Positions 2,554 through 43,113 of a stretch of DNA of 64,000 nt are shown here, piece after piece. The stretch is taken from positions 128,001 to 192,000 of the forward strand of contig CAVXEP010000030.1 in NCBI GenBank assembly GCA_963760795.1. The letters run 5' to 3'. Position 1 is the first letter of the stretch, and every line of letters starts with the position of its first letter. The notes below the pieces were generated by a model, which saw only the letters and a program-made list of their open reading frames with translations, searched no databases and was not told the DNA's origin. The DNA is from an uncultured delta proteobacterium (GTDB taxonomy: Bacteria > Desulfobacterota > Binatia > UBA9968). The position numbers and the translations under genes are program-made.

Positions 2554-3165
2554 TCAACGCGGTGCGTTCGCTCGCGACAGCGTCGAGGTGAGGATTTTTA
2601 TGTTTTCGCTTTTCTCTATGTAGCGCACGAACAGGTATTTGTTTTCCTGCGAGTCCAACGCAGCCGCCGGCACGTCGCCCGCTCCTTCTTCAACCTTCGC
2701 GTGAATGAAATAGAGATCGTTACTCTTGAAGGCGCGCATAAAACCATTTTCGAATTCATCGAGCGTCTGCGCAGTCAGCACGTTGGCTATGCCGCAACCT
2801 CGAGCGATGGCGGCCAGGTCGGCCTGCCCCGCCGTCGCCGTCGGCGCGCCGCGGGAAGACTCATAGCATTCATTGTCGAAGACTACGTGAACCAGGTTCT
2901 TCGGATGTTGATTGGCGATGGTTGCCAGGCTGCCGAGATTGAGCAGCAGCGAGCCGTCGCCGTCGAATGCGACGACTTTGCGGTGCGGCAGAGCCAGGGC
3001 CAATCCGAGCGCCATGGACGACGTCAGACCGAGATTTTGCAGATGGTAGTTGCCATGGTGCGGTCTCAGGGCTTGCCATTCGTGGCGCACGGCGCCCAGG
3101 TTGGTGACCACCAGCTCGTCGCCGAAGTGCGGCGCGATTGCCCGTAGACAGTCATATCTTTTCAT
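2554..3165 (-). CDS. TPP-dependent decarboxylase beta subunit (sulfopyruvate/phosphonopyruvate decarboxylase ComE-like)
   Basis: GDGSLLLN...DN TPP-binding motif; immediately downstream of the alpha subunit. Confidence 0.88.
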   Translation of the reverse strand: MKRYDCLRAIAPHFGDELVVTNLGAVRHEWQALRPHHGNYHLQNLGLTSSMALGLALALPHRKVVAFDGDGSLLLNLGSLATIANQHPKNLVHVVFDNECYESSRGAPTATAGQADLAAIARGCGIANVLTAQTLDEFENGFMRAFKSNDLYFIHAKVEEGAGDVPAAALDSQENKYLFVRYIEKSENIKILTSTLSRANAPR

Positions 3166-3169
3166 CGAG

Positions 3170-3670
3170 TTACCTCAGGGCTTGTTTGTTGAGGACAATG
3201 GCCGTCGGCCGGCGCGACGAGCGCGCGAGCACCTGACTATCGCGAATAGTCGGGCGGATCTCCTCGAAGCGGCCGACTTTCTCGTAAACGATATGCATGG
3301 CCTGCAGCACCGGCTCGGTCAGAGCGCCGACCGTGGCGTGCCCGGCATTGTCCTCGCCGACACCGCCGCTGTGGCCGATCAACATCAACACGGGTATCCC
3401 CGGATGAATGCAGACCGTCGCCAAAGCGTTGGTCGACAATAAAAATCCCGCGTTCATCATCACCATCGCCGGCCGTTTGCCGCCGAGGTAGGCGCCGGCG
3501 CAGATGCCGATGCCCTCTTCCTCGCGGGTTACCGGCACGTGATGAATCGCCGAATCTTCGCCGAGCGCAATCACCAGATCGTGCAGGTTCGCTTCCGTCA
3601 AGGTCGCGACAAAATCGACCCCCGCCTCTTTCAGTGAATCGACGATCTCCGCCGCCACTTCTCGTTGCAT
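3170..3670 (-). CDS. TPP-dependent decarboxylase alpha subunit (ComD-like)
   Basis: VTREEEGIGICAGAYLGG..P..MMNAG motif; start MQREVA at 3670 after a GAGGAG RBS. Confidence 0.88.
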   Translation of the reverse strand: MQREVAAEIVDSLKEAGVDFVATLTEANLHDLVIALGEDSAIHHVPVTREEEGIGICAGAYLGGKRPAMVMMNAGFLLSTNALATVCIHPGIPVLMLIGHSGGVGEDNAGHATVGALTEPVLQAMHIVYEKVGRFEEIRPTIRDSQVLARSSRRPTAIVLNKQALR

Positions 3671-4100
3671 ACTTCTCCTCCTTCGGTTCGCAACCTTTAT
3701 TGCGGAGACCACGCTGGCAGTCAAGCGAACCTGAGCTTCATCAATACTCTGCCGGCCATAGATGAATCGCCTTTCGAGTCGGACCGTTCTTGCTGCCCGG
3801 AAAGCCATCTCAGATATTTCTTGTCTCAGTTCGCTTTCCTGGCATCGTGCGCCGAGCCTGCGCGACCTAGTCGGAAAAACTCCCTACCGTTGGTTGCGGT
3901 AGGCGATTTCCTCCTTGGTCTTCCGCGCCGCGATTTGCGGTTCGAGCCGTTCATGTTCGGGGTTCAAAGTTCAAGGTTAAAGATCGCGCGCGGAAGCGCT
4001 CGCGCGCCCGCTTGCGCCGGACCTTCCCGTCGGAATAGGCTCAATCACAGATTGATCTTTGCAGGAAAGAATCGGCATCCGGTAACGTCGGAGGGACGCC

Positions 4101-6017
4101 ATGCAAGATACCTATGACACCGTCTACACCCGTTGGCTGAACGATCCTGAGAATTTCTGGGCCGAGGCGGCCGAAGCGGTTCATTGGGATAAAAAATGGG
4201 ACAGGGTGCTCGATGACTCGCGGCCGCCGTTTTACAAATGGTTCCCCGGCGGATTGCTCAATACTTGCTACAATGCGCTCGATCGCCACGTCGAAGGCGG
4301 GCGGGGAAATCAGCCGGCGCTCATCTATGATAGCCCTGTAACGGGAGTCGTCCAGACGTTCACTTACCGCGAGCTGCTCGATCAGGTAGCAAGCTTCGCC
4401 GGTGTGCTTGCCGGGCAAAAAGTTCAGAAAGGCGATCGGGTCATCATCTACATGCCCATGGTGCCGGAGGCGATCGTCGCGATGCTGGCATGCGCGCGCA
4501 TCGGCGCGATTCATTCGGTGGTCTTCGGCGGTTTTGCCGCCGCTGAGCTCGCCAATCGCATCACCGACGCGCGACCGAAGATAATTATCTCGGCGACCTG
4601 CGGCATCGAAGCCGGCCGCATCATTCCCTACAAGCCCTTGCTCGACAAGGCGATCGACCTTGCGACGGTTAAGCCGGAGCGCTGCATTATTGTCCAACGT
4701 CCGCAGGCAAAGGCGTCCATGATCGGCGGGCGCGACCTCGATTGGTCGGAAGCGATGGCGGACGCAAAACCAGTCGGCTGCGTTCCCGTCGAGGCCACTG
4801 ATCCGCTTTACATCCTTTACACTTCCGGCACTACGGGTATGCCCAAAGGGATCGTGCGCGACAATGGCGGGCATCTGGTCGCGCTCACATGGAGCATGCA
4901 GCACATCTACGGTGTGGAGCCGGGCGAAGTGTATTGGACGGCGTCGGACGTGGGCTGGGTCGTTGGCCACTCGTACATCGTTTACGCGCCGCTGTTCAAC
5001 GGCAATACCACCGTGCTCTACGAGGGCAAACCGGTCGGCACTCCCGATGCAGGCGCGTTCTGGCGGGTCGTCTCACAGCACGGCGTGAAGGTCCTGTTCA
5101 CGGCGCCCACGGCGTTTCGCGCGATCAAGCGGGAAGACCCCAACGGCGAATTCATACGCAAGTATGACTTGAGCGGCTTCCGCACGCTCTTTCTCGCCGG
5201 CGAGCGCTGCGACTCGGACACGCTCTTGTGGGCGCAAAAGCAGCTTGGCGTGCCGGTGATCGATCACTGGTGGCAGACCGAAACGGGCTGGCCGATCGGC
5301 GCCAATTGTATCGGATTGGGAATGCTTCCGGTGAAACCGGGTTCGTGCACGAAACCGGTGCCCGGTTACGATGTCCGGGCGTTGGACGATGACGGCAGGG
5401 AACTATCGCCGGGACAGATCGGCAGTATCGTAGTCAAGCTGCCATTGCCGCCGGGCTGTCTTCCCACACTGTGGAACAACGATGAGGGCTACCGCAAAGC
5501 CTACCTCGCCAGGTTTCACGGCTACTACCTCACCGCCGATGCGGGGTACAAAGACGAGGACGGCTATCTTTGGGTGATGACCCGCACCGACGACATCATC
5601 AACGTCGCCGGTCATCGGCTCTCCACCGGCGCGCTGGAAGAGGTGCTGGCCTCTCATCCCGACGTCGCCGAGTGCGCTGTCTTGGGAGTCGCCGACGAGA
5701 TCAAAGGGGAAATTCCGTTGGGCCTGATCGTGCTCAAGGCCGGGGTGCGACGCTCAGACGGCGAGATCGTCAGCGAGACGGTCCAGATGGTGCGCGAACG
5801 GATCGGCGCCGTGGCTTCGTTCCGAGTCGCGACGGTCGTCAAGCGGTTACCCAAGACGCGCTCGGGCAAGATTCTGCGCGGTACCATCAAAAAGATTGCC
5901 GACGGGGTCGAGTATCAAATTCCGCCTACCATTGATGATCCACTGATCCTCGATGAAATTACCGCCGATTTGTCCGCGCTGGGCTATCCGGCCGGTTCGG
6001 CAAGGAGCTCGGCTTGA
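4101..6017 (+). CDS. prpE: Propionyl-CoA synthetase (acetate/propionate-CoA ligase)
   Basis: YTSGTTGMPKG, DHWWQTETG and LPKTRSGKILR motifs; 638 aa. Confidence 0.9.
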   Translation: MQDTYDTVYTRWLNDPENFWAEAAEAVHWDKKWDRVLDDSRPPFYKWFPGGLLNTCYNALDRHVEGGRGNQPALIYDSPVTGVVQTFTYRELLDQVASFAGVLAGQKVQKGDRVIIYMPMVPEAIVAMLACARIGAIHSVVFGGFAAAELANRITDARPKIIISATCGIEAGRIIPYKPLLDKAIDLATVKPERCIIVQRPQAKASMIGGRDLDWSEAMADAKPVGCVPVEATDPLYILYTSGTTGMPKGIVRDNGGHLVALTWSMQHIYGVEPGEVYWTASDVGWVVGHSYIVYAPLFNGNTTVLYEGKPVGTPDAGAFWRVVSQHGVKVLFTAPTAFRAIKREDPNGEFIRKYDLSGFRTLFLAGERCDSDTLLWAQKQLGVPVIDHWWQTETGWPIGANCIGLGMLPVKPGSCTKPVPGYDVRALDDDGRELSPGQIGSIVVKLPLPPGCLPTLWNNDEGYRKAYLARFHGYYLTADAGYKDEDGYLWVMTRTDDIINVAGHRLSTGALEEVLASHPDVAECAVLGVADEIKGEIPLGLIVLKAGVRRSDGEIVSETVQMVRERIGAVASFRVATVVKRLPKTRSGKILRGTIKKIADGVEYQIPPTIDDPLILDEITADLSALGYPAGSARSSA

Positions 6018-36649: not shown

Positions 36650-38488
36650 GGTTCTGCTGAAAAACCCCCTCAAGTTTTTTGTTTGTTCAGTTAAATCTAC
36701 GTTGACAAGCGACGATATCGCCTTCATCGTTTTCTCATGAGCGTAAGAGCCGTCGCTGCACAGAGAAGCTTTTATCATACCGACTATCTTGCTGGAGATC
36801 TTTTCGGTCCAGCCAATCGCTACCGGTTGTTTCGGGAAAAGATCTGGCCCAAGCTTTTAGAGCTTTCCCCGAAACTTGAAGCGTTGTATTGCGCCGAGAA
36901 CGGCCGGCCGGGGATCGATCCGGTGCTACTTTGCGGAGTGACGCTGCTCCAGTTCATGGAGAAAGCAGCAGATCGCTCGGCCACCGAGCGCGTGGTGTAT
37001 CATCTGGGTTGGAAGTACGCCTTAGATCTGGAACTGGATTACGCCGGGTTTCATGCCACGGTGTTAGTTTATTTTCGCGACCGGTTGGAAGACAACAAAG
37101 TCGAGCGGATGATCTTTGACGGGATAGTTAAGTTGCTGGTGGAGCTGGGATTGGTGAAGAGAAAGGGCAAGCAGCGGCTCGATAGCACGCATATCGTGGG
37201 GTACGTCAAGGCGATGAGCTTGTTGGAGTGCGCGATAGAGACGCTGCGCTTGGCGTTGGAGGATTTGAAAGTAAAAGTGGGGAGGAAAAAGCAGCCAGAA
37301 TTTTGGGACAGGTTGTGGGAACTGTATGTAGAGAGCAAACTGGATTGGCGGCTAAACAAGACCGAGCGCGACCGCCGCTATCGGCAGTGTGGGCAAGACA
37401 TGAGAGAGCTGCTGGAGTGGCTAGACGGAAACGATCCTAAGCTCGCTGGACGTGAAGCAGTGAAACTATTGCGGCGAGTCTTTGGCGAGCAGTTTGAGAT
37501 GGTCGACGGAAAGCTTGAGCTCGCCCCCAAGCGACCGCCTCGCGCGGTGCAGAACCCCCATGATTCCGATGCGCATTATGCCGATAAGAGGAGCAAGCAA
37601 TGGATCGGCTACAAGGTGCATGTAACCGAGACTGTCGATCCTCAACAACCGATCAAGAAAAAGGGCGAGCCCACCGACCATTTCATCACCGAGATGCTGA
37701 CCGTCGAAGCGGCCCAGGACGAGAAGGCTGGCTTGACCGAGACGCTCACAAGAGAACAAGCGCACCATGAGATCGAACCCCGGGCGATCTACACCGATGC
37801 AGGTTATGTGACCGAGCACACCTTAACGCAGGCGGAACAAAACGGCATGGAGTTATTAGGACCGACGCGTCCCGATCCTCACAAGGGACCCTACAATAGC
37901 GATGCGTTCCATGTCGATATCAACGAGCGCCAGGCGGTTTGTCCTCAGGGCAAGCTCAGCACGCAGTGCAGCCGCATCAAAGATAACTATATGGGAACCG
38001 AGTACTATCGCATCGAGTGGGGCAATCAATGCAATAGCTGTCCGGTACAAAAGCAATGTACGCGGTCCAAGAGTGGACGGAGAACTTTGGTCGTTGGACT
38101 GCGCCATGATCTGGTCGAGCAGCGGCGCAGAGAAATGAAACAGAAAGGTTTCTCCAAATCCATGCATCCGAGAAACGGGATTGAGGGAACCCACAGCGAG
38201 TTGGTGCGTGGGCACGCGATGAGACGGACGAAATATCGGGGCTTAAGCCGGGTCGGTTTATCGAATTACTTCATAGGTGCAGCTTGCAACGTAAAACGAT
38301 ATCTAAATCTACTCGCGTTTCAGATGAGAACGCCGCCTCTGAGCCCCGCTTAAGGGCGGAGCGCAGCTCATTTTCCTGGCTATGGCTTCGTTGAGGGTGA
38401 AACTTTCTCTGGCGTAACATTATTTGGCGATGACCACTGTTTACTAGCGGCGGTCGCGAATCAAATTCAGGGGTTTTTCAGCAGAACC
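36650..38488 (+). mobile_element. IS1182-family element, copy 2, intact
   Basis: IRs GGTTCTGCTGAAAAACCCC / GGGGTTTTTCAGCAGAACC with TATATA on both flanks (4-6 bp target duplication). Confidence 0.93.
36737..38353 (+). CDS. IS1182-family transposase
   Basis: GRPGIDP (DUF772-like), LDST, YTDAGY, CxxCP...C and R..IEG motifs. Confidence 0.92.
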   Translation: MSVRAVAAQRSFYHTDYLAGDLFGPANRYRLFREKIWPKLLELSPKLEALYCAENGRPGIDPVLLCGVTLLQFMEKAADRSATERVVYHLGWKYALDLELDYAGFHATVLVYFRDRLEDNKVERMIFDGIVKLLVELGLVKRKGKQRLDSTHIVGYVKAMSLLECAIETLRLALEDLKVKVGRKKQPEFWDRLWELYVESKLDWRLNKTERDRRYRQCGQDMRELLEWLDGNDPKLAGREAVKLLRRVFGEQFEMVDGKLELAPKRPPRAVQNPHDSDAHYADKRSKQWIGYKVHVTETVDPQQPIKKKGEPTDHFITEMLTVEAAQDEKAGLTETLTREQAHHEIEPRAIYTDAGYVTEHTLTQAEQNGMELLGPTRPDPHKGPYNSDAFHVDINERQAVCPQGKLSTQCSRIKDNYMGTEYYRIEWGNQCNSCPVQKQCTRSKSGRRTLVVGLRHDLVEQRRREMKQKGFSKSMHPRNGIEGTHSELVRGHAMRRTKYRGLSRVGLSNYFIGAACNVKRYLNLLAFQMRTPPLSPA

Positions 38489-42009: not shown

Positions 42010-43113
42010 ATGATCACCGTTCATGCCGACGTGGTTGGGAGCCTGCTCAGACCGCCGGAACTGATCGAGGCACGCAACCGGTTAGCGGCTGGCGAGATCG
42101 ATGCTTCACGCTTCAAGGAAATTGAGGATCGTGCTGTTTGTGACGCGATCGCGATACAAGAGGCGGCGGGGCTCGCAGTCGTCACCGACGGCGAAATGCG
42201 CCGGCAGTCTTTTCAGAGCCAAATGACCGCGGCAGTCGAGGGCTTCGGTGACTTCAGCATGGACGCTTTTCTTTGGGGCGAGTGGCACAATGCCCAAGGA
42301 ACAGTCCGCAAAGCGCGCCCGCCAAACCTTGGGGCAACTGGCAAACTCGTGCGAAAGCGCTGGTTATCCGCTGATGAGTTTACCTATCTGAAGAACAAAA
42401 CCAGCCGCGTTGCTAAAATCACCCTGCCGAGCCCAAGCCTTTGGGCCAACTTCTGGTCTCGCGAATACTCCCGTGCCGCGTACCCGACTCTGGATAGTTT
42501 CCTCGCAGACATCGTTCAGCTCTTGCGCGAAGAGGTTCAAGAGCTGGTGCGCTTGGGCGCTCCTTACATCCAGATCGATGCGCCCCACTACGGCCTGATG
42601 CTCGACGCTACGACACGGCGTTTCTACGAAGAGCAAGGGTGGAGTCTGGACCAATGGTTGACGCGCGGCATCGAGCTGGACAATGCGATCATCGCTGGAT
42701 TTCCAGGCGTCACTTTCGCGCTCCATCTCTGACGCGGCAATCAGGGCGGCCGGTGGCTCGCCGAGGGAGGTTACGAATCTATCAGTCGTGGGCTCTTCCA
42801 GCGGCTCAAGGCACAGCGACTCTTGCTCGAGTACGACGATGATCGCTCGGGCACGTTCGCGGCGCTCAAGGACATCCCCGAAGACAAATTCATTGTGCTC
42901 GGCTTGATAACCACTAAAACCGGCCAGCTTGAGCGCATGGATGAATTACGCCAGCGCGTCACGACCGCGAGCAAGTATTTTCCCCTTGCCCAGCTCGGCG
43001 TCAGCACGCAGTGTGGTTTTGCTTCGTCTGTTCTCGGTAACCCGGTCTCGTCTGACGAGCAGAAGCAAAAGCTCGAACTCGTCGTCCGGACTGCGCGTGA
43101 GGTTTGGGGATAA
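42010..43113 (+). CDS. Cobalamin-independent methionine synthase II (MetE catalytic-domain/YxjH-like) family protein; in-frame TGA at 42730-42732 is a probable selenocysteine
   Basis: ADVVGSLLRP, TDGEMRR, IQIDAP, LHL*RGN (normally HxCRGN), LLEYD, VLGL.TTK and QCGFAS all lie in one frame; a SECIS-like hairpin follows the TGA. Confidence 0.85.
42733..42762 (+). promoter_or_regulatory. Candidate bacterial SECIS element
   Basis: Stem GGCGGCC/GGC(T)CGCC at 42745-42762 with a GGT apical loop starting 20 nt after the TGA. Confidence 0.6.

Follow-up and report, generated by a model that had tools for sequence, protein, structure and literature searches.

A candidate selenocysteine at the predicted catalytic-zinc ligand position of a single-barrel MetE-like enzyme from an uncultured Binatia bacterium

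The cobalamin-independent methionine synthase MetE combines an N-terminal folate-binding barrel with a C-terminal catalytic barrel. In the Escherichia coli enzyme, according to Price et al. (2021), the zinc is held by His641, Cys643, Glu665 and Cys726, and homocysteine is bound at its carboxylate by Ser433 and at its amino group by Glu484 and Asp599; Pejchal and Ludwig (2005) describe the same sets of ligands and substrate-binding residues in Thermotoga maritima numbering. The core methionine synthases MesA to MesD are reduced to a single barrel of at most 386 residues, keep the zinc- and homocysteine-binding residues and use a non-methyl-folate donor, and the MesD/MesX type is recognized by an identity of about 55% or more to ACIAD3523 together with an adjacent DUF1852 (MesX) gene (Price et al. 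2021). Selenocysteine (Sec) is not described for any of the four in the portion of that article available. The gene reported here lies at positions 42010–43113 of the forward strand of a 64,000-nucleotide stretch (the window) of contig CAVXEP010000030.1, from an uncultured delta proteobacterium of the Binatia. It encodes a 367-residue protein resembling the MetE catalytic barrel, in which the first Cys ligand of the zinc is replaced by an in-frame TGA that very probably encodes Sec.

In most known selenoproteins, Sec takes part in redox chemistry or binds a redox-active metal, as is the case for nickel in [NiFeSe] hydrogenase and for molybdenum or tungsten in formate dehydrogenase. Selenoproteins of alkyl transfer, namely arsenite methyltransferase and methylated-DNA-protein-cysteine methyltransferase, are already listed as well (2026 AEM review). 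The present gene is like all of these in placing Sec where a metal-ligand or nucleophilic Cys would stand, in having Cys-type homologues and in carrying a hairpin of the selenocysteine insertion sequence (SECIS) kind directly after the UGA. It differs from them in that there the metal is redox-active or Sec is the nucleophile, whereas here Sec would occupy the predicted ligand position of a Lewis-acid zinc.

Reading frame and distribution of the TGA

The region 42010–43113 (+) constitutes a single frame that starts with ATG at 42010 and whose sole interruption before the final TAA (43111–43113) is the TGA at 42730–42732. With translation table 11 two open reading frames (ORFs) are listed in this frame, 42010–42732 (240 residues, ATG start) and 42823–43113 (96 residues, TTG start), and read-through of the TGA, which then becomes residue 241, yields 367 residues (..FALHL-U-RGNQGGRWLAEGGYE..LLLEYD..STQCGFAS..). 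The initial annotation of this DNA had taken the two 'split' ORFs for one frame with a single TGA and had seen no decay elsewhere in the gene. The frame and its translation bear out the former, and the latter agrees with the conservation past the TGA: on average, pairs of sequences are 63.8% identical in the 120 residues that follow the Sec codon and 69.3% identical in the 120 that precede it, and a further stop downstream of the TGA occurs in 0 of the 54 full-length Sec forms.

The column of the TGA was compared in two sets of homologues, one obtained by searching 61 genomes of the same order in six frames and the other from a search of one genome per species over 185,579 species, which returned 552 relatives whose best 80 (61–93% identity) were inspected; pooled, the sets comprise 105 sequences, 86 of them distinct. 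Within the order there are 24 matches of 59–93% identity that extend over the column, counting that of the window itself; each has exactly one in-frame TGA, which stands at the same H-x-U-RGNQG column in all of them. Two of these 24 genomes (G004 and G035) are flagged as unpublished, and without both (22 of 59 genomes) the conclusions are the same. An orthologue of 68% identity in genome G008 has no stop and carries TGC at the Sec column. Among the best 80 of the 552 relatives, TGA is present in 55 (53 and two identical copies reading H-L-U-C-G-N-Q) and TGC or TGT in 25, and the pooled distinct orthologues (59–93% identity) divide into 60 with TGA and 26 with TGC or TGT. The alternation of TGA and Cys codons at one column that the initial annotation had anticipated is therefore present, and 60 distinct sequences share the TGA that might otherwise have been an isolated nonsense mutation. 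The natural Cys orthologues, which share 60–68% identity, form a Sec/Cys pair with the TGA forms, and TGA-bearing homologues conserved past the UGA occur in other Sec-using organisms. TGA is missing from every paralogue listed for these genomes of the order with an identity of up to 45%, one of which has a TAG; all paralogues examined have Cys at the Sec column, four of them within H-[IL]-C-RGNQ.

According to the record titles, the TGA forms belong to metagenome-assembled genomes (MAGs) of Binatia ('Deltaproteobacteria') and to seven Poribacteria genomes, with single MAGs of Anaerolineae, Thermoanaerobaculia, Acidobacteriota and Desulfobacterales in addition. Such titles are partly unreliable, as L080 ('Verrucomicrobiia') and L081 ('Chloroflexota') have the same contig numbers and match coordinates as G024 and G005 of the window's genus. 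A maximum-likelihood tree of 89 rows (85 orthologues and four paralogues as outgroup, with one 684-nt Sec fragment left out) requires at least seven changes between Sec and Cys, of which at least three are forced by branches with a support of 95 or more. In this tree the Cys form of G008 is nested within a clade of 44 Sec forms and one Cys form (support 100). On this topology, several independent switches between Sec and Cys took place.

Some individual sequences deviate from the common pattern. The two identical copies mentioned above (L129 and L131, each at 3001–4107 on two contigs of one Acidobacteriota MAG) place a Cys after Sec where all other sequences have Arg, which gives a U-C dipeptide at the metal site. 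In a Poribacteria chromosome (L128, 3001–4107) a second in-frame TGA is found at residue 130 besides the one at the ligand column, which may reflect decay, an error in the sequencing or a further site of recoding. The match L050 on contig 31 of G013 (89% identity) is spread over four frames that cover query residues 1–184, 186–260, 227–302 and 303–367, and it represents either a pseudogene or an assembly with frameshift errors.

The genome from which the window derives encodes the complete Sec machinery above the respective cut-offs, with selA at 612.2 bits, selB at 410.5 bits, selD at 378.6 bits and tRNA-Sec at 76.7 bits (gathering score 47); selD, selB and selA are adjacent on contig 11 and tRNA-Sec is placed on contig 13. 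All four genes on which the initial annotation made its reading depend (selA, selB, selC and selD) are thus in place. Across the order, selA exceeds its cut-off in 56 of the 61 genomes and in 23 of the 24 carriers of the TGA form, the exception (G001) being 65% complete, and the five genomes without it include G008 (93% complete), the sole Cys-form genome in the genus. Beyond the order, the corresponding counts are 11 of 12 for genomes with the TGA form, the twelfth having a selA fragment at a contig end, and 15 of 25 for genomes with the Cys form. Taken together, selA accompanies the TGA form in 34 of 36 genomes against 15 of 26 for the Cys form (G008 counted), figures that are counts and not a statistical test, as the relatives are not independent. 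From these counts the TGA form appears essentially confined to Sec-decoding genomes, whereas genomes with the Cys form may have the machinery or lack it.

The selD gene itself (contig 11, 1948–2862, minus strand) has an unusual beginning. It reads M-P-C-A-[TGA]-R-N-R-S-K-A-A-G-[TGA]-A-A-K-L..., with a second in-frame TGA nine codons upstream of the expected Sec codon and no ATG, GTG or TTG between the two, and a 60-nt segment beginning at the first TGA has a folding energy of -30.2 kcal/mol. Either the start codon of selD is unusual or SelD has two Sec residues. With two in-frame TGAs at the N-terminus and a different, long hairpin, selD was unusable as an internal SECIS reference.

A reassigned genetic code was rejected because TGA ends neighbouring genes, so the code is the standard one: TGA stops four of the eight neighbours checked, or five of nine (cupin, aldo-keto reductase (AKR), alcohol dehydrogenase (ADH), amidase and substrate-binding protein (SBP)) with the TAA-ending gene itself counted. 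The TGA is also bridged in independent assemblies, a check suggested in the initial annotation. Positions 42730–42732 lie within contigs of four runs, two of DNA and two of RNA libraries, one RNA-library contig spanning 42589–42827 with three differences and another 42437–43109, and none of the 40 differences displayed (125 further rows stand outside this display) falls on the TGA. The highest share of sampled words in a public run was 0.34, and since all the runs are assembled contigs, neither depth nor expression can be claimed from them.

Family, predicted fold and the metal site

The protein is a member of PF01717 (Meth_synt_2, the MetE catalytic domain), which matches residues 8–339 with 57.9 bits against a gathering cut-off of 21. 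It falls outside TIGR01371, the model of the two-barrel MetE, both by score (39.4 bits against 929.95) and by length (367 residues against about 750). The closest solved structure is 1YPX, a single barrel from Listeria deposited as 'putative vitamin-B12 independent methionine synthase family protein' (E 1e-50 by sequence and 3.1e-62 by profile), which shares with the window protein and with PRK06520 and PRK06233 a single (beta-alpha)8 barrel of about 370 residues, an alignment over the full length and the motif H-x-C-RGN, but has Cys at the Sec column (MHICRGNF). To our knowledge, the function of 1YPX is itself uncharacterised.

An AlphaFold2 model calculated from 21 orthologues reached a mean predicted local distance difference test (pLDDT) of 79.2 and a predicted template modelling score (pTM) of 0.83. 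Foldseek placed 1YPX at the top (E 2.3e-15, TM-score 0.78 normalised to the target), followed by the MetE catalytic barrels of T. maritima, Neurospora and Candida (query TM-score, TMq, about 0.67) and then by MesD (3RPD). The window protein is thus like the C-terminal barrel of the E. coli and T. maritima enzymes in domain family (PF01717), zinc-ligand set, homocysteine-binding Ser/Glu/Asp and fold, and unlike them in the absence of the N-terminal folate-binding barrel and in the replacement of the first Cys ligand by Sec. With MesA to MesD it shares the single-barrel MetE catalytic domain with its conserved zinc and homocysteine residues, but it belongs to none of the four. The similarity to MesD is distant (E 4.7e-7 and 20% identity by fold with 3RPD) and no MesX was seen among the annotated neighbours, so that the MesD/MesX type does not apply. 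A search for MesX (DUF1852) in the genome, which is 88.9% complete, gave no match, and neither did it in any of 14 control genomes.

The zinc ligands were assigned with hhalign, which was needed because the HMMER comparison with the PDB aligned canonical MetE over residues 8–213 only. Alignment of the 21-orthologue profile with residues 421–753 of E. coli MetE (probability 97%) pairs His239, Sec241, Glu274 and Cys335 with positions 641, 643, 665 and 726, and Ser11, Glu62 and Asp190 with positions 433, 484 and 599, all seven being invariant in the 21 aligned Sec orthologues. The TGA is by this profile alignment placed on a zinc-ligand position, that of Cys643, exactly as stated in the initial annotation, and the set of zinc ligands and homocysteine residues of PF01717 is found complete, with Sec in the place of the first Cys. 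The predicted ligand His239 (codon CAT, 42724–42726, +) is the H of the H-x-U motif. Glu274 (codon GAG, 42829–42831, +), predicted to bind zinc in the resting state, lies at the end of strand 270–274, and Cys335 (codon TGT, 43012–43014, +), the predicted distal ligand within QCGF, lies just past strand 329–333. In the model the ligands are thus located at or just beyond the ends of strands 235–240, 270–274 and 329–333. Ser11 (42040–42042, +), Glu62 (42193–42195, +) and Asp190 (42577–42579, +) would bind an amino-acid thiol by its alpha-carboxylate and its alpha-amino group, and on this alignment the predicted substrate pocket is built for an alpha-amino-acid thiol.

Besides this gene, the genome of the window carries full-length Cys paralogues of 37–44% identity, at least eight in number. 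The single-barrel MetE-like family is expanded throughout the order, with 2–25 matches per genome (25 in G025 and 18 in the window genome, G000), some of them in tandem (L054 and L055), and within it only the orthologue group of the window gene uses Sec.

The hairpin downstream of the UGA

A SECIS-like hairpin is located at 42744–42762 (+), with the 5' arm at 42744–42751, a GGU loop at 42752–42754 and the 3' arm at 42755–42762. It starts 11 nt past the UGA, the spacing from UGA to loop being 19 nt, and its minimum free energy (MFE) varies between -9.6 and -11.5 kcal/mol with the segment chosen for folding. The stem has 8 bp in most orthologues. In the window's clade, a Ser to Gly change in the 5' arm and a Ser to Ala change in the 3' arm are accompanied by a bulged U through which a 7-bp stem is kept. 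The published criteria for a bacterial SECIS (bSECIS; 2026 review) ask for a loop of 3–9 nt starting with G[G|U], a stem of 4–16 bp, a distance of 16–37 nt from the UGA and an MFE of -7.5 kcal/mol or lower, and the hairpin satisfies all of them, in line with the GGU-loop hairpin of bacterial SECIS geometry described in the initial annotation.

Comparison of the Sec and Cys forms revealed three differences in this region. The pairing itself is distinct: across 55 distinct Sec hairpins 88.6% of the cells are paired, whereas slid controls do not go beyond 75.5%, and eight cells are changed on both sides, with pair 24–36 present as CG in 39 sequences, GC in three, AU in two, GU in two and UG in one. 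The pairing, the double-sided changes and the covariation score of the Sec forms were each reached by none of 500 shuffles, whereas the 25 Cys forms, with 73.5% of cells paired, do not exceed their controls (158 of 500 shuffles reach the value), figures to be taken as strong hints and not as probabilities, as the shuffle controls of both groups ignore relatedness. Pair 23–37 is broken in 24 of the 25 Cys forms.

The second difference concerns synonymous diversity. In the Sec forms, the five least diverse 9-codon windows out of 365 all begin within two codons of the UGA, with values of 0.315–0.373 against a gene mean of 0.56, and the matching window of the Cys forms ranks 86th of 365. The third is the Arg codon that forms the loop, which is CGG in 55 and CGT in five of the 60 Sec forms, so that the loop reads G-G-U or G-U-U, although CGG accounts for 23% of the 1766 other Arg codons in these genes; among the 26 Cys forms it is CGC in 16, CGG in five, CGT in four and CGA in one. 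A loop, a covariation and a synonymous constraint specific to the Sec forms indicate a putative RNA signal under selection, and the conservation of the hairpin that had been expected from the initial annotation is thereby seen in the Sec forms only.

Function, alternative explanations and significance

In the proposed mechanism, SelB with Sec-tRNA(Sec) would recognise the hairpin with its G[G/U]U apical loop 19 nt past the UGA, Sec would be inserted at residue 241 and the ribosome would continue to complete a (beta-alpha)8 barrel of 367 residues. His239, Sec241 and Cys335, joined by Glu274 at rest, would then hold one Zn2+ at the C-terminal ends of strands 6–8, and Ser11, Glu62 and Asp190 would bind the amino-acid end of the thiol substrate, most likely homocysteine. 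The zinc-bound thiolate would next be alkylated by a methyl donor, the enzyme being of the 'core' single-barrel type without the N-terminal folate barrel. As there is no folate barrel, the donor is expected to be of the non-methyl-folate kind, and the enzyme would methylate homocysteine or a similar thiol. The locus is in this reading likely to be one intact, functional selenoprotein gene and not two fragments, with Sec likely at the catalytic-zinc ligand position of a single-barrel MetE-like thiol methyltransferase, zinc ligation included. The comparisons above show the frame, the conserved alternation of TGA and Cys, purifying selection beyond the TGA, the Sec machinery, a constraint on the RNA of the Sec forms and the match of the residues to the MetE ligands; the incorporation of selenium, zinc as the metal, homocysteine as the substrate and the reason for the use of Sec are what we infer. 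The proposal of the initial annotation, Sec as a zinc ligand in a thiol-alkylating enzyme, is supported as to the ligand position by the alignment, while its substrate and donor chemistry is not established.

As to what Sec would contribute, a selenolate ligand could render the thiolate on the zinc more nucleophilic. A Zn–Se bond of 2.433 Å, determined by extended X-ray absorption fine structure (EXAFS) with selenohomocysteine, is cited in Pejchal and Ludwig (2005). Alternatively, a selenolate may ease the re-reduction of an oxidised metal site. The ligands of MetE are prone to oxidation, given the disulfide between Cys620 and Cys704 in zinc-depleted crystals of the T. maritima enzyme (Pejchal and Ludwig 2005).

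The genes around the window locus encode a transposase, a cupin, an AKR, a zinc-dependent ADH, an amidase, a YCII protein, a deacetylase and an SBP. In the Binatia context, the gene is accompanied by a convergent TauE/SafE gene in 24, Amidohydro_2 in 14, isochorismatase in 12 and UbiD in 11 of 80 loci. The neighbours in the window's clade differ from the TauE, isochorismatase and UbiD context of the other Binatia, and a DDE transposase (PF13751 and DUF772; 36737–38353, +) lies 3.7 kb upstream, so the gene may have been relocated. With neighbours that are catabolic, a housekeeping role in methionine synthesis is not required. The label 'methionine synthase II-like' of the initial annotation therefore holds for the family resemblance, and the putative function it implies is not established for a gene placed among catabolic genes. 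No two-barrel MetE was found in the genome, where the best TIGR01371 match scores 58.2 bits. At the metH locus (contig 13, 100918–104470, minus strand) at least five pieces match the model in different frames, with one internal TAG, and this corresponds either to a decayed gene or to frameshift errors of the assembly.

Several observations weigh against the assignment of a Sec-containing methionine synthase-like enzyme. The 66-nt region of the hairpin folds no better than its shuffles (z = +0.70, with 154 of 200 equal or better), the bSECIS criteria in our own implementation are passed by 230 of the 1979 TGA triplets of the window (11.6%), and they are passed by 59 of 60 Sec forms and by 23 of 26 Cys forms alike. 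With this weak separation and this rate among random TGAs, the criteria were dropped as stand-alone evidence. RNAalifold, run on the first 24 sequences, chose another weak structure (-6.06 kcal/mol, no compensatory pairs), for which reason the named hairpin was tested directly, and an Rfam scan of 42600–42900 gave matches at chance level only (E 4–9). The hairpin taken alone is therefore unremarkable, and the weight is carried by the contrasts between Sec and Cys forms in pairing, synonymous constraint and loop codon. The Sec forms are moreover dominated by one lineage, the Binatia, and contigs from RNA libraries, although they bridge the TGA, are no proof that the gene is transcribed. The protein stays below the cut-offs of its nearest named families, NF005085 (PRK06520; 245.4 bits against 313) and NF004875 (PRK06233; 226.8 bits against 576), no gene of the methionine pathway is linked to it in the window or in the 80 loci, where the neighbours are catabolic, and a metH locus is present in the genome, though broken across frames. 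The organisms are uncultured, and the evidence stands at the level of nucleotide sequence and not of protein.

If the TGA were an isolated nonsense mutation or an assembly error, a Cys-type gene would have been split into two dead ORFs. This genome does contain a broken-looking gene, metH, whose pieces lie in several frames and include an internal TAG, and in G013 the orthologue is divided among four frames. Gene callers halt at the TGA as well: of the 120 best database clusters (65–100% identity to the N-terminal part), 112 are exactly 240 residues long. A pseudogene would however have to share its TGA column with 60 distinct sequences in many genomes and several phyla, to keep an identity of 63.8% over the 120 residues downstream without a further stop in any of the 54 full-length Sec forms, and to retain the TGA among the differences displayed in contigs of four independent runs, all of which makes this explanation extremely improbable. 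A UGA with a meaning other than Sec is highly unlikely as well. It could end a 240-residue protein, perhaps complemented by the 96-residue piece from the TTG at 42823, or be read through by a near-cognate tRNA as Trp, Cys or Arg; the existence of that TTG-started ORF and the 11.6% of random TGAs that pass the loose bSECIS criteria speak in its favour. The two-piece model nevertheless leaves untranslated 30 codons (42733–42822) that are conserved in frame as RGNQGSRWL..., and the 240-residue product would be devoid of Glu274, Cys335 and two strands of the barrel. The distribution of selA (34 of 36 TGA-form genomes against 15 of 26 Cys-form genomes) and the G[G/U]U loop, covariation and synonymous constraint specific to the Sec forms also argue against termination or near-cognate reading.

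Sec might on the other hand be incorporated without being a spectator ligand of zinc, and instead bind a softer metal, act as the nucleophile that accepts the methyl group, or serve a seleno- or thio-substrate unrelated to methionine synthesis. The separation of the family from MesA–D and canonical MetE, the catabolic neighbours (UbiD, Amidohydro_2, isochorismatase, amidase, AKR and ADH) and the alkyl-transfer selenoproteins already listed in the 2026 review are compatible with such a role. This is unlikely, in view of the four zinc-ligand and three homocysteine-binding positions, which are all invariant, and of the Cys orthologues of 60–68% identity, by which the chemistry does not strictly require selenium. 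A ping-pong methyltransferase in which the zinc-bound selenolate of Sec241 takes the methyl group from a poor donor and passes it, as Se-methyl-selenocysteine, to homocysteine is quite unlikely; a methoxylated aromatic or another methylated catabolite might be the donor, given the neighbouring UbiD, Amidohydro_2 and isochorismatase genes. Were it true, aerobic soil bacteria and sponge symbionts would have a way to pass methyl groups from catabolism to methionine without a cofactor, and the enzyme would be a natural test case for the choice of Sec over Cys outside redox chemistry.

The reading preferred here, Sec as a ligand of a catalytic zinc, would describe a selenoprotein family that is apparently unreported, what is new being the family itself and the zinc-ligand position of its Sec. 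The family is not named in the available text of the Global Ocean Sampling (GOS) 2008, Olavius 2007 and Peng 2016 selenoprotein surveys, and 'methionine synthase' has no occurrence in that of the Sargasso Sea 2005 survey. It is equally absent from the 2026 AEM review, including its table of Pfam and NCBIfam accessions per family, and from the articles on BSepDB (2026) and deep-Sep (2025, its nine new families included), the 2022 Biomolecules review and the Haft and Gwadz preprint, all of these negatives referring to the published lists, apart from supplementary tables and the BSepDB database itself, where the family may be listed. Within that scope, the statement of the initial annotation that the family is not among the classical selenoproteins agrees with the lists searched. 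Full-text literature searches for the combination of Sec and a MetE-like protein returned nothing relevant, and on Sec as a zinc ligand only the non-catalytic zinc binding of selenoprotein P was found in the portions of the literature available.

With 112 of the best 120 clusters ending at the TGA, the family appears to be systematically mis-annotated, and those clusters that bear a name are called 'homocysteine methyltransferase', 'methionine synthase II' or 'hypothetical protein', so that the selenoproteome counts of its lineages and the annotations of a 'truncated methionine synthase II' would need correction. It is common in Binatia of soil and groundwater and in Poribacteria, which are sponge symbionts. 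Because Cys orthologues of 60–68% identity exist and several independent switches between Sec and Cys are deduced from the tree, the Sec/Cys orthologue pair would offer a clean natural test of what selenium brings to an enzyme outside redox catalysis, be it thiolate activation, metal affinity or the recovery of an oxidised metal site.

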